A stretch of 52,496 nucleotides of DNA, from positions 96,561 to 149,056 of the forward strand of contig BLSG01000149.1 of assembly GCA_012862495.1 (NCBI GenBank), read 5' to 3'. Made by a program: the position numbers and the translations under genes. This DNA is from Thraustochytrium aureum. Taxonomy: Eukaryota. The notes beneath the pieces are model-generated. The model did not search any database, had not been told where the DNA came from, and saw only the letters and a list, made by a program, of their open reading frames with translations. Positions 3,306 through 37,977 of the stretch are shown here, piece after piece; position 1 is the first letter of the stretch; each line of letters opens with the position of its first letter.

Positions 3306-6266
3306 ATGGCGCAGCACGGGCGGTCTGCGCTCGATGAGCTCGAGGCAAGAGTCGAGGGCGATACCGCGGTAGGGCAAACTCGCGAAGAGCTTGCTAGGGT
3401 CCAAGAGCAGATCCGCGCGGCGAGGGCTGAGCTCCTCTTTCGCACGGATGAACTCAGCGAGCTGCAGCGGACGAAGGACGCGCAGCTGGCGATGATGAAC
3501 AGCGCTGCACCAATGCATTCAACTGAAAAGGCCAAGGAAGCACGGCTGGCGGTGGTGAATAGCGCGACTGAAAGCGAGGCGGTCGCAGGCACGGTGCGAG
3601 AGCCGACCGCTGGCGTTGACGCCCAACGGGCGCTCGAGGCTGACCAGCTTGAAGCGCAGGTCACAGCTCGCCTCCGGCAGTTTCTCGAAGAGCAGCTGAT
3701 CCCGGCCTGCAAACAGAGCGCAGCTGCGGGGGCAGCAGTCTCGCTGGCGGACGCCGGCGAAGATTTTTTCCAGGTGGACGTGCACGCTGACAAGCAGGTC
3801 TGCTCCCTCAAAGTGAGCTCGGCGTGCACGTTTCGCGAGCTACTCATGCACGCCGGAACGTACTGGCACATTGACCGCAAGACCTTGCAGCGCCTCGTGC
3901 TGGTCGACCACGAAGGTGTCGCGTTTCTGAGCCACATGAAAGTCAAGCAAACAATGCTGCAATTCTCTGGGACGCGGGGCCGCATCGTCCTACGCCATCG
4001 CCCCGTTATCTCGCCAGACTTGTTCAAGCTCTTCAATCCGGCCAAGGTGGCCGAGCGCGTTGCTCGAGCACAAAAAATTCGTGAAAAAATCGCGCGGGAA
4101 AGCATGACCGTGGCTGGGCAGCTCGGCGATGCTCCGGGCAGCGACGCGTTGGAGACCCAAGCCGACCAAGAACTGGCCGACGACGGCTACGAGGGGATCG
4201 ACGGTGAGGGCCTCGAACTGGTCCAAGTTGGTGGCAGAGCTGGCCGTGGCACTTCCGACGAGGCAAGCACTGGGGCCAGAGACCTTGAGAACGGACCGGC
4301 TAGCCCGCGCGCCCCCCTCTCGGCGATCGCAGAGGTGGCGCAGCCGCAGACCAACGCGGCTGGCCTTCGCGACGAAGCCTCGAGCGGGTCAAGCACGGGA
4401 TTCAGCACAACAGACATTGACGACCTCATTGAAGAGGCTTTTGAGGAGGCATACGAGGCGGAGACCGAGGGCAAGGATGCGCAGGCCACCGACCTCGTGC
4501 GAAGCCAGTACACCTACTTCCTGGTCCTGGACTGCGTTGTGTTTGCTCCGGTGCTTGTCGCGTTTGTGGTGGCCGCTCTCGTCGGGTTGCGGTCCGACCT
4601 GTTTTTCGCAGATATCCAGGAGGCGCAGGTGCAGTTCAGAGACATTTTTGAGCGGTTCCAGCCCGCTACCGCCTTCGACGTGGTTGTTAACCAAAACCTG
4701 ACGGGGAGCGGGGTGAACTTGACCAACCTTGTCGGCGCAAACGATTTGGTCTCCTTTCCGCTCATCTCGAACGACCTGCGCCTGTACTCGTTCCTGGGGA
4801 CGACTCTTCCAGCACTGCTATTCAATGAAAGAACATGCCGTGACGGCGAGGAGATCGACGCTTGCGTCTTGAGCCAGTACAACGCCATTTCGAGCCAAGT
4901 AAGGCTTCGACAGCTGCGCGTGGACGGAACAGAGACCACATTCGCCGGCACCGACGGCTTGCGCTTTGGTCCGTACTCGGCCTCGAGGCGGGCAGAGACT
5001 TGGGCCGCCGGGCCGCTCTCGGCCGAGGCGGCGGCTCGCACGAGAGGCGACCCCTTCGCGTTTGTCGCAAGTAGCGATACCGGGCCGGGCGACTGGCGAT
5101 CCACGCGCGCCATCACCGCTCTGCAGGACCTTGACATCCTCGCGTTCTACGACCCTTCAGGATTCAACCTGCTTTCGTTGGAGCCCGAGGAGTTTGACCC
5201 AGCGAATCGCACACTCCCTCTTGTGATCAACGCGCTACGAGCAGAGTCCTGGCTTGGCGAGGGCACTCGTGCGGTGGTGGTCGACTTTACGACAATCAAC
5301 ATCAACACGGGCATGTCGCTGATCCACACAATCATCGCGCAAAAGTTGCAAGAAGGCTCATACGCGCCCGTGTACCTCTTGGGGATAGTGCCGCCCACCG
5401 TGTTTCTGGGCTTTGGCAGCAGCGCGCAAGGCCTCGCGTGGGGCATCACATTTGGAATCTGCATTCTTTACATCGTCGCTGCGTATGCTCTTCTGCTTTG
5501 GAAGCAACGTGACGCGCTCGACTATGAACGAGCGGGCTCCAAAGCGAGCCCGCCTGGGCGCATGTCGAGTTTCCGCAAGTGCCTGTGCACCTTTAATCCC
5601 CGCGTGCTGAGCTGGTGGTCTGTTCTGGACTTGATGGTGGTCGTTCTCGGGCTGAGCTTGTTCGCGATGGAGGTTGCAGTGATGTTCCTCCCAGCCTCAG
5701 AGCGCGCGCGCAGCATGTTCGCCGAGTCGTTTGCCTCGTTTTACAACCTGAGCCCCTTGGCAGCGATTACACGGGCGCAACAGGACTTGCTTGCGCTGGC
5801 GTTGGCCGTGGCTTTGGTTCGGCTGTGTCGGCTTTTGCTTCTGGCGCCAAGCGGCGAGGTCCTCGCGAACGCGTTCGTGATTTCCCTTGCGCGGGCGCTG
5901 CGCGTGATCCTGCTTCTCTACGTGCCTCTCTGGTTGGCGATTTCTGTTGCAGCGTACGTGCGCTTCGCGCCAGCATCCATGGCGTTTAGCGAGTTTGGCG
6001 GGGTCTTGATCTCCATCACGCGGCTCGGGATGGGGTATCCTTTGACGAAGGTTTTGTCGGAGGCGGTGTGGCCGGTCTTGATCGGGTTGGCGGTGCTCTT
6101 TTCCATCACCTACTTTGCCTCAATGCTGCTGTATCTTGTCCTCATTGACGCGTACTCGTTCGCAGCGCGCGCGCCGGCGATGACGACCACCAGGTCGGTC
6201 GGCCAGTGGTTCGAGGTCGTGCGCTCGCTTCCGCAGGGGGCCCCGGCGTACCGCAAGTCGACATGA
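3306..6266 (+). CDS. polycystin-2/TRPP-like cation channel
   Basis: 986-aa ORF. S1 is followed by a large extracellular TOP-like loop containing VRLRQLRV and WLGEGTRAVVVDFT..N.N (PKD2-type W.D..TRAVF.DF..YN.N), then five further hydrophobic segments with a pore-like loop. Confidence 0.85.
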   Translation: MAQHGRSALDELEARVEGDTAVGQTREELARVQEQIRAARAELLFRTDELSELQRTKDAQLAMMNSAAPMHSTEKAKEARLAVVNSATESEAVAGTVREPTAGVDAQRALEADQLEAQVTARLRQFLEEQLIPACKQSAAAGAAVSLADAGEDFFQVDVHADKQVCSLKVSSACTFRELLMHAGTYWHIDRKTLQRLVLVDHEGVAFLSHMKVKQTMLQFSGTRGRIVLRHRPVISPDLFKLFNPAKVAERVARAQKIREKIARESMTVAGQLGDAPGSDALETQADQELADDGYEGIDGEGLELVQVGGRAGRGTSDEASTGARDLENGPASPRAPLSAIAEVAQPQTNAAGLRDEASSGSSTGFSTTDIDDLIEEAFEEAYEAETEGKDAQATDLVRSQYTYFLVLDCVVFAPVLVAFVVAALVGLRSDLFFADIQEAQVQFRDIFERFQPATAFDVVVNQNLTGSGVNLTNLVGANDLVSFPLISNDLRLYSFLGTTLPALLFNERTCRDGEEIDACVLSQYNAISSQVRLRQLRVDGTETTFAGTDGLRFGPYSASRRAETWAAGPLSAEAAARTRGDPFAFVASSDTGPGDWRSTRAITALQDLDILAFYDPSGFNLLSLEPEEFDPANRTLPLVINALRAESWLGEGTRAVVVDFTTININTGMSLIHTIIAQKLQEGSYAPVYLLGIVPPTVFLGFGSSAQGLAWGITFGICILYIVAAYALLLWKQRDALDYERAGSKASPPGRMSSFRKCLCTFNPRVLSWWSVLDLMVVVLGLSLFAMEVAVMFLPASERARSMFAESFASFYNLSPLAAITRAQQDLLALALAVALVRLCRLLLLAPSGEVLANAFVISLARALRVILLLYVPLWLAISVAAYVRFAPASMAFSEFGGVLISITRLGMGYPLTKVLSEAVWPVLIGLAVLFSITYFASMLLYLVLIDAYSFAARAPAMTTTRSVGQWFEVVRSLPQGAPAYRKST

Positions 6267-6465
6267 GCGATGAAGCGCTCTGTGTGGGGCGTGCGGGCGC
6301 AGCGACGTTTCTGCGGGCGCATTGGCCAAATACTTTGCGCTCGCACGGGTGTTCTGTCTTTTTTAATTAAAAGTGATGCATTGTAGAGATCTGGCGAGCG
6401 GGCCAAGTACATAGGTAAAATCATGATTTTGTAACAAAATCCAATTGACAGCACACGCAGCGAGA

Positions 6466-7678
6466 CTACCACTTTTGCTGGAGCGTGTCCTCTAGGCCGC
6501 CTTGGTTTGCGTTTGGGTTGTCGTAGCAAAGCTGCGGCTCTTTTGCCCAAAGTGGCGCTCTGTGCGGATCTTGAGCAGCGCAATGTCCTCGGGTTGGCCC
6601 TCGAGCTGCGGAAGCGCGAGGCGCTCCGCCATTCGCGCAGCATACGATTGCTTGACAGCAAAGGCAACGGGGCCTCCGACGGCGAGGTTCTGGTTCGGCC
6701 ACTGCGGGAACACTCGCTTTCCTCTCGTGTTGAGCACGCCAAAGTCCACCTCCGGGTTGAAGTGGAAGAGCCGCTTGTTATTCTTGTACGCGCGGCCCCA
6801 GGTGTACCCGGGACACATGTGCAGGACTTGCCAGTTGGGGGCATCTCCTCGATAGTCTTTGCGAGCTCGATAGCGAGCTCCGGGTGCAAGATTGCAGAGT
6901 CTTGCATGATGACGCACTTCTCTGTGTTGAGCGCTGCGCACACATTGAGCGCGTGGATCAGGGTGCGCCGCCGCTGCTCTTGGAGGCGCAGGGCGGGGTC
7001 TGTGTTTTGCGGGATGTTGACGACGTGGAGTCCTTGTGTGGCCAGTTGTCTTGCCACCTGCGCGGTGCGAGCGATGATCTCAGGCGTCTGCTTGCTCGGA
7101 TCGGTCATGAGGGTTGGGAGGATCACCAGCTCGCTCCGGGCCACGAAGTGCCCTACTGCCCCGCGCAGCGACTCGCTTGTGCGGGCACCGAGAGCTCCCA
7201 GTGCCGACCCCGCGGCTGAGCTCGACGAGAGCTCCGTGAGGAGCCCAATCGAGACCAGGAACACGACAAACATCATGAGCGCAAGGTCGCGCGGCATCAC
7301 CTGAACGGCAGCTTTCGGTTGTTCACCTTNNNNNNNNNNNNNNNNNNNNNNNNNNNNNNNNNNNNNNNNNNNNNNNNNNNNNNNNNNNNNNNNNNNNNNN
7401 NNNNNNNNNNNNNNNNNNNNNNNNNNNNNNNNNNNNNNNNNNNNNNNNNNNNNNNNNNNNNNNNNNNNNNNNNNNNNNNNNNNNNNNNNNNNNNNNNNNN
7501 NNNNNNNNNNNNNNNNNNNNNNNNNNNNNNNNNNNNNNNNNNNNNNNNNNNNNNNNNNNNNNNNNNNNNNNNNNNNNNNNNNNNNNNNNNNNNNNNNNNN
7601 NNNNNNNNNNNNNNNNNNNNNNNNNNNNNNNNNNNNNNNNNNNNGGTTGTTCACCTTCTCCATGACGTGCCTGTTCAT
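6466..7678 (-). CDS. type II membrane glycosyltransferase-like protein (GT25-like), frameshifted in this assembly
   Basis: N-terminal TM (LALMMFVVFLVSIGLL), then CVIMQDSAIL...EEMPP/NWQVLHMC, GGPVAFAVKQSYAARM and PEDIAL, resembling GT25 ILEDD...LP.DWD.LYL, .Y.IS..GA..L and P.D. Joining needs one extra base at 6837-6841 (G5), probably at 6546-6548 (C3) and about 7303, plus closure of the gap 7330-7644. Both ends are inferred. Confidence 0.6.
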
Positions 7679-8322
7679 CCTGTCGTCGCACCGCAGGCCC
7701 CGCTGGAGCGCGCCCCACATCTGCCTGTCTCCCTGCCTCCCTGCCTGCCTGGCTTGCGTCCTGCACGAGCGTCGCCCTTGCGACTCGCGACTCGAGTCGC
7801 GAGAGCAGTGGCTGGCGTTCGGATGGGTGTCTGTCTGCCATGTCTGCCATGTCTGCTAAGCGCGCGCACGCCAATGCAAGCAAATGCACTCATCAATCTT
7901 GGAGTTGTACACGCGCGCGAGTGGCACACGCCACAATCGCAAATTCATCCGAAAAGGAGGGACAGCAGCTGGTGTGCAAAGGAAGAGGAACGCAAGCTCA
8001 CCCGTAGTGCACAGAGGGAGGAACACGTGCGCACCCTGTAGCGGAGTTTCACTTTTGGTCAGTCATCGAGAAGGAAGGTGAAACTCTTCATTCCAGCATG
8101 GATTCAGCGTGCCACTGGCAGTGCGAGTGGCTGGCTCGATGCTGCCAGCAAGGAGGCTGCCAGAGTGCTTGTGTGGCAAGCTTGTGGCTTCACATGTGAG
8201 TTGAGCATTCACCAGTTCAGGTTGCACATTGCAACAGTCCCGCAACGCCTTTGCTGCACGCACACATCTGCAACGCTCGAAACAGCAAACAGGCACCAAC
8301 GAACAACCGCCAAAAGCACGAG

Positions 8323-8916
8323 ATGTGGGTTCGAGGCGCCCTGGAGGGCGCGCTGGTCGCCGGCGCTCTCGCGACGGGCGGGAGCGGAACGGCGAGCACG
8401 ACCACGGGGGTCTCCAGCTTCGACATTTTTTTGACGTCGACAGACTCGACTGTGAAACTGCAGGGCGATTCGGTCAGCCAAGATTTCAAGGGGGCTGTTG
8501 AGGTATATAAGTTCGACCTGGGCGCGGCATCGCGCGTCTCGGCTAAGAACACGGTAGGCAAGCCGTCGATCGAGCCGATCTGCTTCGCTCACGGGGCTGA
8601 CTCGCCTGCTGCGGCGACGATTTACGAGCTGCTCTTGCTGGGCATGCCCATCAAGGATCTCCACTTCTCGTTCATCAAAGCTGGAGCATCAGGGGGCAAA
8701 TCGGGGAGCGCCTTCTGGCGAGTCGAGTTCACCGATGTCCTCTTCACCAAGGCCGACCTCGTCGCATCCGCGGACGACGGAACCTTCAGACAAGATGTGT
8801 GTTTCAGCCCGATCGCCGTCAAATACTATCGGCCAGAGATCAGCTCGCAGACTGGAGTTCGTCCTCCTTTGACCAACTATGTCGAGTACGACATTTCGAC
8901 GAACACAGTGCACTGA
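8323..8916 (+). CDS. hcp: Hcp/TssD-like (type VI secretion tube) protein with hydrophobic N-terminal leader
   Basis: Colinear Hcp1-type motifs: FDIFL...LQGDS...FKGAVEV..F..G, GKPSIEPICFAHGAD..A..IY...LLG..I, FIKAG, FWRVEFTDVLFTK, RQDVCFS...V and YDISTN. The domain is about 165 aa, the usual Hcp size. ATG 8323 follows an A/C-rich leader. Confidence 0.8.
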   Translation: MWVRGALEGALVAGALATGGSGTASTTTGVSSFDIFLTSTDSTVKLQGDSVSQDFKGAVEVYKFDLGAASRVSAKNTVGKPSIEPICFAHGADSPAAATIYELLLLGMPIKDLHFSFIKAGASGGKSGSAFWRVEFTDVLFTKADLVASADDGTFRQDVCFSPIAVKYYRPEISSQTGVRPPLTNYVEYDISTNTVH

Positions 8917-9145
8917 AGAGTTTTTGTGCATGGTGGCAGGCAGGCGGTTTGCAGAGACGCTCGGTCGAGTATAGCGGGACCTTGCGACTGAGAAAACCAC
9001 GAAACGTCCATTTTGCGCCCATCCATCTTGGCTTTCCTCTCCCTTGATCGAAACCCTGACCGTCGAACGACCCGCTGCCAAATCTACGCACGCAAGTCGC
9101 TCGCAAAGCTGAAGCTTCTGTTCTTCAACCAAAAAAAACCAAAAA

Positions 9146-10522
9146 ATGACTGCGAGCAAGTGCCGAGCGCTCCTGCTGCTGGGCGACGGCACGGCGTCTG
9201 GGCGCGCGCAGTGCCACGCGCTGGGGAGCGCCGCCGCGCGGGCGCTAGGGCGGGGCGCTGCGCCGCACGTGCAGCTGCTCGAGCACGTCGCGCCATGGCC
9301 AAAGCGCGGCTCGCTTGCAGCAGCCATGCCTGCCTGGGCGCTTGCTGCGTACGGCGCTCTGGCTGCCCGCCTCGGGAGGCTGCCGCGCGGCATCGGGGCT
9401 GAGGCGCGCCACGAGGTTGAGCAGCTTGTCGCCCAGGCGGTTGAAGCGCGCGTGGAGGGCGTGATCGGCTGCGGGAGACGGTCAGCAGGCGCAACTGCCG
9501 CGCTGCGCGAAGCAGTGCAGAGGGCGCGCCAGAGTCCCGTGTGGAACGCACAGATCCTCGAGCCGAGGTGCGGAGTCCTCNNNNNNNNNNNNNNNNNNNN
9601 NNNNNNNNNNNNNNNNNNNNNNNNNNNNNNNNNNNNNNNNNNNNNNNNNNNNNNNNNNNNNNNNNNNNNNNNNNNNNNNNNNNNNNNNNNNNNNNNNNNN
9701 NNNNNNNNNNNNNNNNNNNNNNNNNNNNNNNNNNNNNNNNNNNNNNNNNNNNNNNNNNNNCGGAGTCCTCGGCCCCGCCCTTTTTGACGCCGTTCTGACG
9801 CCCAAGCACGACAGGTCGAGCGGGGAGCACGTTTTTTCAACCTATGGCGCGCTGACGTGGGTGAGCCCTGCCTCGCTTCGTCAAGAGCGGCTCAGCCAGC
9901 GACAAGCCCACGGGCTGAGCCACCCGCTCCTCGGCGATCTTGACGCTCCTAGAAGTCTGCTTGTCGCACTGCTCGGAGGGGACACTTCCCGCAGCAAGAT
10001 GGATGCCTACCTCGTGCGCGCGGAGGTGCTGCGGATTTCCGCGCAGGCAGGCGCCGCCCGTTGCGTGGCGGTCGGCTCGCGACGCACGCCGTCGCTTCTT
10101 TTGGACATGCTCGAGGCAGACGGCCTTAGCGTTTGGCGGCCGCCTCTGACTTGGGCGCCAGAACAGGGCAGTGGGCTCTCGGATGCCCTGGGAGGCCCGA
10201 AACAGCAGGTCGAAAACCCTTACCGGATGGCTCTTGCTTTCGCCAGTGCATTCATTGTACGGGGGATTCTGTCTCGATGGTTTCGGACGCCTGCTCGTCT
10301 GGGCGGCCTGTTGCTGTCATTCGCGCTGGAGTAGACGGTGGAAAGGGCTCGAAGATCGGCCGGTTTCTTGATGGGCTCGAAGGAGCAGGGCTTGTCGCGG
10401 GCTCGCTGCAACCTGTGTCGCTCACATTACCGGATGGGCCCCACTTGGCGGACGCTGACTCCGCCGCCGATTTCGTATTGCAGCGCGGGGCCAGGCGAAC
10501 CAGTCGCCGCTCCCCTCCATAG
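9146..10522 (+). CDS. mitochondrial fission ELM1-family protein
   Basis: Motifs GDG..SG..Q..ALG, VIGCGRR, QILEPR, FDAVLTPKHD, TYGAL, ALLGG, SRRTP, ENPY...LA.A..FIV and TGDSVSMVSDACSSGRPV. It spans a false gap (9581-9760) and a 1-bp frameshift near 10258. Confidence 0.9.
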
Positions 10523-10628
10523 ATTACGGCGCGGTCTTCGAGTTGCGCAAGTGCAGAGATGTAAGCTGTTGAAGACTTTTTTCTCACCTAGCTTCACCGA
10601 CATGTCCAGCAGATCGGGCGGACCACGC

Positions 10629-17320: not shown

Positions 17321-19874
17321 ATGTCGACGCTGGACGACTGCCTGGACCTCGTGCAGCAGGGGTCCGTCGCGTTCGCGGTCGGGTCGGCGGGATTCTTCTA
17401 CCTGTCGGACCAGGCCAAGCTCGTGCACCGCTGGATCCAGTACGTGCGTGAACACGGGCGCGCGGAAGCCGCGGACAACGAACCTGCTGCTGCGGCCGGA
17501 GCCCACTCGAGCGATCGCCGCGTGACCCGCGTTGTCGTCAGGTCCGGCGCGCTCGTGGACGGTGTGACCTTCTTCTTCCACGGCCAGCCGAGCGGTGTCA
17601 ACTTTGGCGGGAACGGTGGCACCCCTCACCCGGCCTTCGAGCTCGGCGAGGGCGAGTGGATCGCGTCAGTGAACGGCCGACGTGGCGCCTACATTGACCA
17701 AATCCAATTTGTGACCAACCTGGGGCGGCAGTCGCCCTTGTACGGGGGTTCGGGCGGCGAGGAGTTTTCCTTCAGGCTTCCCGGCGGCGCGCCAATCGGC
17801 GGCCTGGATGTTGCTGTTTCGATCAACGGCTGGCTCAGGTCGATCCGCGGCGTAGTGGAAGCGTCCAAGGTCAATCTGGCGCCTCCCGAGACCCCGCTGT
17901 ACGTTCGAGAACAGGGCATCGTCCGGGCGCACCAGAAACGGGTCCGCAAGCGGCTGCGATTCCTCCACCTCACGGTGATCATCTACACGTCGTTCCTGAT
18001 TTTTGCAATGAGCGGCTTTGTGCTCGACATCCTGCGCGGCCCCAGCGCCCTGAGTCTTGCTCTGGACGGCTCAGAGCCCGCGCGGGCTTTCGTGAGCCTC
18101 CCCCAGCACGTCGAGCCCATCGCCGACAGCGTCAGCTTCGCAGACGGCCAGGAGATGGTGCGCTGGGTCATCTTGGATATGAAGTCCGCTCAGGGCATGG
18201 GGTCTGGGCTGAGGCCCTCCACTTCGCAGGACGGCAGTGGCGTCGAAATGGTCGGCATACTCGTCAAGGAAGTCGTCGAACGAGCAAAGGAGCGAAAAGC
18301 GCTGGGCCGCTCGCCGAACGGGCCTGTACGCACGGGGATTGTCCGGCGCCTGGACTTTAACACGCACGGCCTGGTCTTCGACAAGTACATCGACTCGCCG
18401 CAATTCAAGTGGTTCTGGTCGGGAACTGTTCCAGGCCCTGCGCCTTCGATCAGCGGCGGCGCGGGCTCCGCTGCCGAGGACGCTTCGAATCGCGCGAGCG
18501 AGGAGCTGCGCACACAGGCGGGGCGGCCAGCCAGTGGCGTCGAGCCACCCGCGCCGCCTCCCGCCCGCACCGAGCTTGGACCGGCGTGGGCCCGGCCGCA
18601 TCCAGACCAGGTACCCAAAGTACTTTGTGGACGAGTCGTTCTCTCCTGTGATTATCTACGTCTGCTCTGCTGTCGTCCTTTGCATCTTCCTCTACACGCT
18701 CAAGACCGAGTGGCGCCAGACCACTGGAGCCGAAGACCCTGTCGTGCACCGGTTCGTGATGGACCAGGTCCCGCCGGATCTAAGCGGAGAGGAGGTTGCC
18801 CGGCAAGTCGACCTGGAGGTTCTCGAGGAGGGCACGCTTGTGCTCCCCTGGAGCTCGAGCCTTGTGGCAGTCACGCGAAACTGGCTCATCAAGACCAACT
18901 ATTTGGGCCTGGATGCGATCGCCATAAATGACGCGCGCCTGGTCGACCTGCGCGTCTCTGGGAGGTGGATTATGGGCGAGCTTGTGGAGATCGTGACGCT
19001 GCGCATCGAGAGCCGTCGCTCCGTGACCCGCACCGGGCACCACCGGGGGCGCGCGACCTACTTTTTCGATGTCGCTTTGCCTCGGATGCAATTCGAGTCT
19101 CTGCAGGCCTCGTTCATCGACCGCGTCAACAAGCGACAAGAGGAGCAGGTGCGGCAGCGCGAGCTGGCTTTCGTGAGCCTGTACCATGACATGCTCTGCC
19201 GCCGCGCGAGCGACGGCGTTTCTTTCCCGACGGATGGGCCAAACGCGCGAGGCGGCCAGATTGGCGAGTGCCTAGGGGCCTGCGGGCTGCCGGCCACTGT
19301 GCTCGTCAACAAACGATGCGACTCGTGCGAAGAGCGAAACTCTTGCTCTTGCGAGCCTTCGTGGTGCCACGACTGCCTCTTGCGTTGGTGGTTCACCAAG
19401 AATAGGACGAGAATTGAGCTGGCTAGTGCAGAGGAGGGTCTGGACCCGACTTGGCAAGCCCGATGCCCAACGTGCCGCGTCTACTTCTGCTTGAACGACA
19501 TTGTCCCAAGAGGGGACATTGCGGCATTTCTTGCCGCGGGAGGCGGTAGCGAGCAAGACTGGTCCGGAGCCCCCGTTGCTTTCGCGCACGCACCGTTCGG
19601 GGAAGATACCGCGGTTGCGCCCGTCGAAGAATCTGCGCCGCTCCTCGAGCAACCTGTCGCATCGCCAGAAGAAGAAGAGTTTGCACTGGCAAGCGCTGGT
19701 GAAGAATTTGCAAACGCCGGCGAAGGCGACGAACACACCACAAGTTTTGTGACGGCGGACCGCGAGCAAGGATTTGTCTCTGATGCGACGCCGGCTCAGC
19801 GGATCGAACTGGGCGAACGGCGCGCGCGAGCGGCGGCAGCCGCCGAACAACGGCGCCTTCGTGAAAGCAGCTGA
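17321..19874 (+). CDS. TMEM129-like membrane RING E3 ubiquitin ligase with inserted jacalin lectin domain
   Basis: Jacalin about 17519-17850 (VRSGALVDGV, FGG.GG, FEL..GE.I..V.GR.GAYIDQIQF.TN.GR.S..YGG.GG). TMEM129 features are VAVTRNWLIK and the RING C..C...A.V.V.K.C..C....C.C.P.WC..CL.RW...CPTCR..FC..DI (19269-19503). There is a frame switch (indel or short intron) between about 18430 and 18610. Confidence 0.8.
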
Positions 19875-36570: not shown

Positions 36571-37977
36571 TCACAATAACTGTCCAGACTCGGAACCGAC
36601 GAGAGCTTGCAAAACGAGACGGACCATGTGCGTGCGAGTCTTGCCGCTCGTGTCGCCAGAGCACATCGGAGTGCTTGCGCAGTACAAGCCAGCTTCAAAG
36701 GCAACCTGCGCCGAGAGGTCTTCCAAGGCATCTGCCGCCACGCCATCAAGTTTGGCCAGAGCCAAGTCATCCAACGCAGCTACGACATTGACGAGAATGG
36801 ACCGGTTGCGCGACGAACCGTGCATGGACCGCAAGAGGTCCAGCGCGCGAAGCTGGCGTTGCGAAGGTCGAGCAGACTCCACGTTCAACACGCGACGAAG
36901 GCCATCAAAGCAGTCCAGGTAGCCAGCGAGCTCGCCGGCAGCAATGACAGCAGCGCCGCCGTCCACCGAAGCGGAGCGCAGAACGGGCTCGGGCGCCCGC
37001 TGCAAGAGGCACATTCGCGCTTGACGAAGCCGCGTCGAGTCACCATTGCCTCCCGGCTGCAGCGGCCCCGACAAGGCAGGACCGGCGTCCAAGTGCTCGG
37101 CTCCCTCGAGCACATTCACGTAGCCCTCCTCCCAGACAAAATTCCCTGCCGCGTTCTCCATCGAGCAGGTGTAAGTGCCACTGTGCGAAAGCTCGGCCTT
37201 ATGCACGACCAGACGACTGTTGGTAGCCCCGGGAATGTCGACGCCGTTCAGCCTCCATTGCAGCTTCGGCTCGGGCAAGCCAGCGACCTCGATTGCAAAC
37301 GAGAAGGGGGATCCGCGCGCAACCGTGTGGAAGAACGCCTTGGAGCTCGAGCTTGGTGAGGCCACCTTGTGAAGCTTAACGACGCCGACGGCGACCGCGC
37401 ACGCTATGCCAACGACGACCGCTACTGCGACCCAAATTCGCAAACCCAAGAGCGCTTGCGGCGCTGGCGCTTTGCTTGCCATCGCGCCTGGCGAGACTGG
37501 AGCAGACTTTGCCGGTCGCGCCTCCAGCTCTGCATTTGCCGGCGCCACCACATGGCACGCCAGGTTGGCCCTACTCCGCTTGGCAAGACCAAAGGAGGGG
37601 TGCGCGTTTTTTTCCTCTTGCAAGTCCGCGTGTTCGACCTGGATCTCTTTGCGGCGAGCCGCGTCCTCGAGCCGAGATTGCCGTGCTCGCGCCTCCGCGC
37701 CATCACGTGTGGGCGCGACCGCAACATCGCGTCGCGCCTTCAGAGGGCTGCGCGAAAAGCCACTCGGAGCTTTGCCACCGCGCACAGCGCGTCGAGCAGT
37801 CGCCTTGCGGATATTGCCATTCTCGGCGCGGATGTTTTCGCGGTTGATGTTTTCAGAGTCGTCGATCTCGGCGGCGTGCGCACGCTGGCTCTTGCCATCT
37901 TGCTTGCTGCCGCTCCTGCTCCTGCTCCTGCTTGCATTCAGCGATTGGCCGAGCGGGGTGGCGGCGCGCGAGCTCAT
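36571..37977 (-). CDS. single-pass membrane protein with one immunoglobulin (I-set-like) domain
   Basis: Basic disordered N-terminus, TM (IWVAVAVVVGIACAVAVGVV), then G.P.P.LQW..NGVDIPGAT...L.V......SGTYTC..EN.AG at about 37110-37340. Confidence 0.8.
   Translation of the reverse strand: MSSRAATPLGQSLNASRSRSRSGSKQDGKSQRAHAAEIDDSENINRENIRAENGNIRKATARRAVRGGKAPSGFSRSPLKARRDVAVAPTRDGAEARARQSRLEDAARRKEIQVEHADLQEEKNAHPSFGLAKRSRANLACHVVAPANAELEARPAKSAPVSPGAMASKAPAPQALLGLRIWVAVAVVVGIACAVAVGVVKLHKVASPSSSSKAFFHTVARGSPFSFAIEVAGLPEPKLQWRLNGVDIPGATNSRLVVHKAELSHSGTYTCSMENAAGNFVWEEGYVNVLEGAEHLDAGPALSGPLQPGGNGDSTRLRQARMCLLQRAPEPVLRSASVDGGAAVIAAGELAGYLDCFDGLRRVLNVESARPSQRQLRALDLLRSMHGSSRNRSILVNVVAALDDLALAKLDGVAADALEDLSAQVAFEAGLYCASTPMCSGDTSGKTRTHMVRLVLQALVGSESGQLL

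Follow-up and report, generated by a model that had tools for sequence, protein, structure and literature searches.

An Hcp gene among host genes

Within the 52,496-nucleotide stretch of DNA analysed here (the window), positions 8323 to 8916 of the forward strand hold an intronless open reading frame (ORF) of 197 codons, which carries the Hcp motifs ascribed to it in a preliminary description made from the sequence alone. An in-frame stop lies upstream of 8323, with no ATG between the two. The first 32 residues (8323 to 8418) form a leader, a weak signal-peptide candidate composed of Arg4, a short Ala/Leu/Val h-region containing Glu8, and a Gly/Ser/Thr linker, and residues 33 to 197 (8419 to 8913) form the beta-barrel core of an Hcp/TssD-family protein. 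The gene lies on a contig (7645 to 9580) that is tied to both adjoining contigs. On the same contig, 229 bp downstream of the Hcp stop codon, begins a host gene of the ELM1 family (9146 to 10331, forward strand; PF06258, E 3e-16).

The 197-residue protein is a true Hcp. The Pfam profile T6SS_HCP (PF05638) matches residues 39 to 147 at 33.7 bits against a gathering threshold of 23.5 (E 5.1e-8), and the sequence also matches the solved Hcp PDB 3V4H (E 1.9e-9); a search of the protein against NCBIfam profiles gave no match. A fold model from the single sequence was weak (pLDDT 44) and was replaced by one built on an 8-row alignment, with a mean pLDDT of 76.6. In this model, residues 1 to 31 are unstructured (pLDDT below 50) and the remainder forms a complete Hcp barrel with one helix, C-terminal strands included. 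Foldseek matched the model to Hcp chains (best E 3.3e-12), and VIA-align against 48,161 chains placed Hcp chains at ranks 1 to 12, led by EvpC (Z 19.1, rmsd 2.9, 156 residues aligned), with phage and CIS tubes behind all Hcps at a Z of 10 or less. The Atlas returned Hcp clusters at 0.90 to 0.91, the recognition value being below its threshold, and nothing for the leader. The Hcp identity that had been read from motif order is thereby confirmed at the level of both profile and fold.

The gene is host DNA, integrated among host genes. The exact overlaps of 13 bp and 10 bp that had been claimed at the gaps on either side of the Hcp contig (7330 to 7644 and 9581 to 9760) are real, and the other six of the eight gaps in the window have no overlap. 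Both gaps are bridged by run contigs: on the left, contigs of runs X1 and X5 pass directly from position 7329 to the letters at 7658; on the right, runs X1 and X2 contain the joint 9570>9761, with 23 and 40 letters on its shorter side. These runs belong to three studies, and the window itself may stem from one of them. A single 1435-nt contig of X1 covers the Hcp gene and both flanks and carries strain variants, and ELM1, which begins on the Hcp contig, reads in frame across the right gap, with 332 open codons leading over the joint into its Pfam domain. Composition is also host-like, the Hcp ORF having a GC3 of 0.74 and a CAI of 0.705, compared with 0.64 to 0.78 and 0.65 to 0.74 in 17 other ORFs of the window. 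The (CTGC)n repeats described earlier as host-type occur at 7740 to 7751 and elsewhere in the window, and the A/C-rich stretch before the start codon (8283 to 8322, forward strand) was likewise correctly described: A and C make up 80% of these 40 nt, a richness found in 0.16% of the 40-mers of the window, and the stretch before the ELM1 start is similar (70%, found in 1.9%). Pfam families elsewhere in the window include Pex19, mitochondrial carrier, cyclin, polycystin, PTEN-C2 and protein kinase. One relative of the PTEN-C2 protein comes from MMETSP0961, a sample of Aurantiochytrium limacinum whose header carries a fungal taxon id, seemingly an error for 87102; the host is therefore probably thraustochytrid-like. 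Bacterial contamination or a chimeric scaffold might be suspected from the shortness of the Hcp contig (1.9 kb, with a gap on each side) and from the lack of an intron, yet the in-frame passage of ELM1, the bridging of both gaps and the spanning X1 contig make it very unlikely, and we give it almost no weight, in line with the argument against a contaminant in the preliminary description.

Several neighbouring features deserve mention in their own right. Run contigs aligned to the window add one base at 6547 and 6833 (in four runs), at 7301 and 10258 (in two) and at 10619 (in one), so the window probably contains single-base assembly errors, which would put ELM1 and the left neighbour out of frame. 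The left neighbour, at about 6100 to 7300 on the reverse strand, is divergent from the Hcp gene, has a hydrophobic anchor at its N-terminus and matches no Pfam family; a transcript-like X5 contig from it reaches some 100 nt into the Hcp contig. Farther away, an M42 aminopeptidase gene (PF05343; 20733 to 21878, reverse strand), belonging to a mainly prokaryotic family, is a possible second transferred gene. The window also encodes a jacalin-like lectin domain protein (17321 to 18931, forward strand) and an immunoglobulin-domain membrane protein (36571 to 37977, reverse strand).

Evidence for expression and selection is suggestive. Contigs from runs X3 to X5, which belong to one study and were guessed to be RNA, cover 8442 to 9019, 8363 to 9004 and 8477 to 8628, with no cover over about 7100 to 8360 in X3 and X4 or between about 7760 and 8470 in X5; among the runs listed with a match to the window, none is on record as RNA, and run X9 gave no contig on the window. 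No run covering the ORF has an indel or a stop inside it, and the flanks carry several indels. In X1 the two substitutions in the ORF are both synonymous, compared with 12 substitutions and several indels in the flanks, a deficit in the ORF with a p of 0.03 that becomes 0.09 to 0.13 if a clustered A-run is merged or dropped. Among the rows listed, X3 and X4 carry at least four non-synonymous versus at least two synonymous changes, and the pooled pN/pS of 0.33 (p 0.11) is not significant.

It could be argued from such figures that the gene is a fading relic, transferred and still open, yet under weak or no selection and without a function that matters. In addition to the non-synonymous variants of X3 and X4, this argument can draw on the long branch of the protein, on the retention of only 17 of 40 conserved Hcp columns, and on a 2-residue deletion near residues 161 to 163, which leaves 12 residues in a strand that has 14 in all 86 other rows. 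It can also draw on the fact that no eukaryotic orthologue was identified, while the PTEN-C2 neighbour has orthologues at 45 to 53% identity. We nevertheless consider a relic rather unlikely: that GC3 and codon use have become host-like implies that the frame stayed open over a long residence, the ORF is free of the indels that its flanks have accumulated, and the product has a confident fold and a predicted interface.

Leader-bearing relatives and the origin of the gene

The Hcp gene is the only T6SS gene recognised in the window, as had been claimed: among 113 frames of at least 150 aa, a length above that of short frames such as those of PAAR, the Hcp ORF was the only one to match a T6SS family of Pfam, and no sheath, VgrG or baseplate family was present. 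Full HMMER searching of 1.84 billion representatives, with no length limit, identified no eukaryotic homologue. Close relatives were likewise absent from a word-based search of proteins of 108 to 345 residues (0 of 1136 candidates), from viral contigs, plasmids and phages, and from the metagenome contigs (0 of 101 pattern matches), and none of five window proteins was found in the collection by exact look-up. A metagenome scan with P0006, one of the HMMER matches, retrieved five plain cytoplasmic-type Hcps. In the open-access literature we found neither eukaryotic Hcps nor Hcps with signal peptides described.

Five of the six HMMER matches are Hcps: P0004, P0005 and P0006 are single-domain proteins with signal-like leaders, P0002 is a tandem protein and one is plain. 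Three of the four closest single-domain relatives are therefore leader-bearing; P0005 and P0006 are bacterial by inference only. P0003, a TPR protein, was a spurious match and was discarded as an Hcp relative. Sampling of genomes from four phyla (151, 201, 151 and 301 genomes), together with one genome scan, gave 121 usable rows, 12 of 133 having been dropped before the trees were built as broken, partial or near-duplicate. A hydrophobicity rule, supplemented by four assignments made by eye, gave leaders to 31 of the 121 rows, and leader-bearing Hcps were found in Verrucomicrobiota, Myxococcota and Bacteroidota. The earlier statement that an Hcp normally has no signal peptide consequently holds for the Hcps of T6SS loci, but not for the family at large, in which leaders are widespread and extend to the nearest relatives of the protist protein.

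These leader-bearing Hcps are located away from T6SS loci. TssC gave no match in eight of ten genomes that carry them, the negatives being MAGs and possibly incomplete, and in the remaining two it is present at a separate place. Four Verrucomicrobiota genomes contain leader-bearing Hcps paired in tandem, at five loci (L001:8001-9535, L015:428-2061, L023:5962-7328, L024:5845-7473 and L051:271-2061), where the second member has a C-terminal surface-type extension; in three of these four genomes TssC gave no match. It would seem from these sequences that needle-independent exported Hcps exist in several bacterial phyla, and we found no description of them in the open-access literature.

Two further architectures were observed. 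P0002, a metagenome protein of 1486 aa from ENA, contains six Hcp domains in tandem and, after them, Calx-beta and dockerin domains. Its repeats fall into two alternating groups (support 96 and 99 in the 121-row quick tree), the pattern expected of a single-chain ABABAB ring, and P0002 is likely to be a single-chain, surface-tethered Hcp ring. A Polyangiaceae protein (L036:5410-6462) combines a leader and a collagen-like Gly-X-Y repeat with an Hcp domain at its C-terminus, and its genome is without a TssC match.

The preceding results also bear on whether the protist gene could belong to a contractile injection apparatus of the eukaryote's own, with its remaining genes dispersed over other parts of the genome. 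Only 52 kb of that genome have been read, which gives the idea some room, yet its probability appears very slight, given that the leader-bearing relatives mostly lack a sheath gene and that a leader would be expected to part the tube from a cytosolic sheath.

Phylogeny places the protist protein close to the leader-bearing bacterial proteins. The careful tree (LG+G4) was built on 62 chosen rows with the leaders excluded from the alignment; it left out eight long-branch leader rows, four of the six P0002 repeats and 47 of 83 cytoplasmic rows, and P0005 and P0006 were chosen for it as top search matches. There, the protist protein groups with P0005 (99/87), P0006 (99/88) and the Polyangiaceae protein of L048 (94/83). 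The same four proteins are grouped under a mixture model in the 121-row quick tree (SH-aLRT 92), and the row nearest to the protist protein is leader-bearing in all four trees. Upon removal of P0005 the nearest row is still P0006 (mixture model), and upon removal of both the protist protein joins P0004 (90), not L048. The three mixture-model quick trees gave no starred set for its placement, and the protein has a long branch and at most 30% identity to its relatives. Horizontal acquisition from a leader-bearing bacterial Hcp lineage is likely, and the horizontal origin suggested earlier is supported.

The leader probably came along with the gene from an exported bacterial Hcp and was not added on domestication. 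This is the best reading and not a settled one, as the trees give moderate and unstable support; leaders require at least seven to eight changes on the 62-row tree, so the protist could have gained a leader of its own. With regard to the leader itself, the signal-like character noted earlier holds in part. A 32-residue leader is present, but it is weakly hydrophobic and has a Glu at position 8. Its best 12-residue hydrophobicity, 1.69, is the third lowest of 32 leaders compared, a value that the range of the 31 bacterial-type leaders covers, and its score of 1.75 falls just under the threshold of 1.8 that we set in the hydrophobicity rule.

Ring, stacking loop and lumen

Modelling of three copies of residues 32 to 197 gave a score of 0.58, compared with 0.00 for the best control, a result that may reflect likeness to solved Hcp rings. 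The mark that the model passed was attained by 21 of 30 solved pairs, compared with 0 of 23 single chains; at least 92% of its contacts are shared between runs, with a partner pLDDT of at least 78. In the predicted interface, the edge strand at residues 63 to 68 pairs with residues 144 to 150 of the next subunit.

How such rings might associate with one another is a separate matter. In Burkholderia pseudomallei Hcp1, the L2-3 loop is described as required for ring stacking (PMC4650826). In the protist protein this loop (residues 67 to 80) has 14 residues, fewer than in any of the 63 cytoplasmic Hcps compared, which have 15 to 21; loops of 14 or fewer residues occur in five of 23 leader-bearing rows. 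In line with the earlier suggestion of a nanotube, the protist rings could stack into a tube or filament serving as a structural part of the cell, for example in the ectoplasmic net. The barrel is complete up to its C-terminal strands, and bacterial Hcp rings do stack into tubes (PMC4650826). The idea is weakened because the ring-stacking loop is so short, and we regard it as improbable; native Hcp stacking is also reported to be weak, with no spontaneous formation of tubes in vitro (PMC4650826), and the window holds no sheath, VgrG or baseplate gene in the frames scanned. The protein is a member of the Hcp family and yet, as far as the window shows, does not pass as the tube of a working T6SS machine: such a tube is cytoplasmic, without a leader and with a full L2-3 loop, and here we find a leader of 32 residues and a loop of 14.

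The lumen of the predicted ring offers additional insight. The protein has only two cysteines, Cys87 (8581 to 8583, forward strand) and Cys160 (8800 to 8802, forward strand), equivalent to the lumen residues S57 and T126 of Pseudomonas aeruginosa Hcp1. In a post hoc comparison, none of the 86 other rows has a cysteine in either column. The top covarying pair of the alignment is 90-157 (z 5.8), a register that places residue 87 opposite residue 160, and Cys160 is accordingly a putative cross-strand partner of Cys87. Fifteen lumen residues of Hcp1 that touch its cargo Tse2 (10.64898/2026.06.15.732508) were used to define the lumen. At their equivalents the protist protein has eight charged residues and one Ser/Thr, compared with averages of 2.6 charged and 5.8 Ser/Thr residues in cytoplasmic rows, which, counted post hoc in a long-branch sequence, makes its lumen the most charged of 87 Hcp rows.

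The same positions speak to the earlier suggestion of an effector decoy or carrier, in which the protein would act as a sponge for bacterial T6SS effectors injected into the protist or released at its surface. The surfaces of Hcp lumens are permissive and bind a diversity of cargo (10.64898/2026.06.15.732508). T59 of Hcp1 is required for all tested cargoes (PMC8262886), and its equivalent here is Ala; the equivalents of T122, S111 and N124 are Arg, Asp and Asp. Among the Ser/Thr residues with which Hcp1 binds cargo (T59, S115, T122 and others), only the S115 equivalent stays Ser/Thr, which is no more than indicative, given that lumen positions vary among natural Hcps (10.64898/2026.06.15.732508). 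Because the small polar residues that bind cargo are largely replaced, the suggestion is weakened and we see little chance that the protein acts in this manner.

Finally, the leader and the cysteines together bear on the compartment in which a ring would reside. It is conceivable that the leader descends from a bacterial signal peptide that has since decayed, and that the protein forms a cytosolic (or organellar) ring, a scaffold or chaperone whose free lumen cysteines bind metal or sense redox state. The weak h-region with its glutamate, the absence of any N-glycosylation sequon from the protein and the fact that self-association is predicted for the core without the leader would all fit such a location. 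On the other side, the 32-residue leader has been kept in frame with a basic n-region, a hydrophobic stretch and a small-residue c-region, the nearest relatives bear leaders, and a facing cysteine pair would suit an oxidising compartment. We judge a cytosolic ring unlikely on balance, though it deserves serious attention.

Proposed role and comparison with known systems

The explanation that we tentatively prefer, and to which we assign slightly less than an even chance, is that the gene derives from an exported, needle-independent lineage of bacterial Hcps and encodes a secreted, single hexameric ring that serves as an extracellular scaffold or binder, with no injector involved. A gene of that lineage would have been integrated between two host genes and then ameliorated, an origin for which the trees give moderate support. 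The leader would take the product into the ER, from which it may be released to the cell surface or the ectoplasmic net. Six subunits are predicted to join by the edge-strand pairing described above, and because the L2-3 loop is short, little stacking of ring on ring would be expected. The lumen would no longer chaperone cargo of the T6SS type, being charged instead, and the facing Cys87/Cys160 pairs, 12 cysteines per ring, could become disulfide-bonded in the secretory pathway or coordinate a metal. A more specific version of this secreted-ring explanation, possible but more speculative, is that the protein is the first eukaryotic Hcp to be recognised, a secreted hexameric ring whose re-engineered, charged, twelve-cysteine lumen captures a ligand or metal at the cell surface or ectoplasmic net, and that it represents an outlier of a needle-independent bacterial exported-Hcp system.

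Hcp is commonly taken to be diagnostic of type VI secretion in bacteria. Its presence in a eukaryotic chromosome extends the transfer of T6SS genes to eukaryotes from enzymes (dae) to a structural tube subunit, and a second, needle-independent task for Hcp rings outside the cytoplasm is indicated, seemingly common to many bacteria. Neither the presence of a T6SS nor contamination should be scored from an Hcp match alone. Related thraustochytrid species are cultured and genetically tractable, so if the host is a thraustochytrid, localisation and knockout in such a relative could test the function of exported Hcp rings.

A thraustochytrid protein with a similar label has been described. A142921 of Aurantiochytrium limacinum is labelled 'type VI secretion protein?' and proposed for the ectoplasmic net in PMC12221091, where it is given as 279 aa with a 65% Phyre2 match and low-confidence, sheath-type (VipA) matches. 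By eye it is without Hcp motifs; it was rejected as an orthologue of the protist Hcp and appears unrelated.

Comparison with better characterised systems helps to define what is shared and what is distinct. With the Hcp/TssD tube protein (P. aeruginosa Hcp1, 1Y12; Edwardsiella tarda EvpC, 3EAA; 3V4H), the protist protein shares the profile, the barrel-plus-helix fold and the predicted edge-strand self-association. It differs in its eukaryotic host, in having no other T6SS family in the window, in its leader, in the short stacking loop and shortened strand, and in the charged lumen with a cysteine pair. The bacterial exported Hcps come closer: like the protist gene they have a leader before the Hcp core and a position apart from T6SS loci, and they provide the nearest rows in all four trees. 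They are often paired with a surface-domain Hcp, or joined in a six-repeat chain as in P0002, whereas the protist gene is single, with no partner or anchor domain evident, a weaker leader and the cysteine pair. Among published cases, the nearest parallel is dae2 of ticks and mites, which 10.1101/2020.04.10.036376 presents as a T6SS-derived gene moved to a eukaryote, equipped with a signal peptide and secreted without an injection machine. Dae2 is a cell-wall-degrading enzyme whose antibacterial role has been tested, whereas the protist Hcp belongs to a family of structural tube and chaperone subunits with no known catalytic activity.
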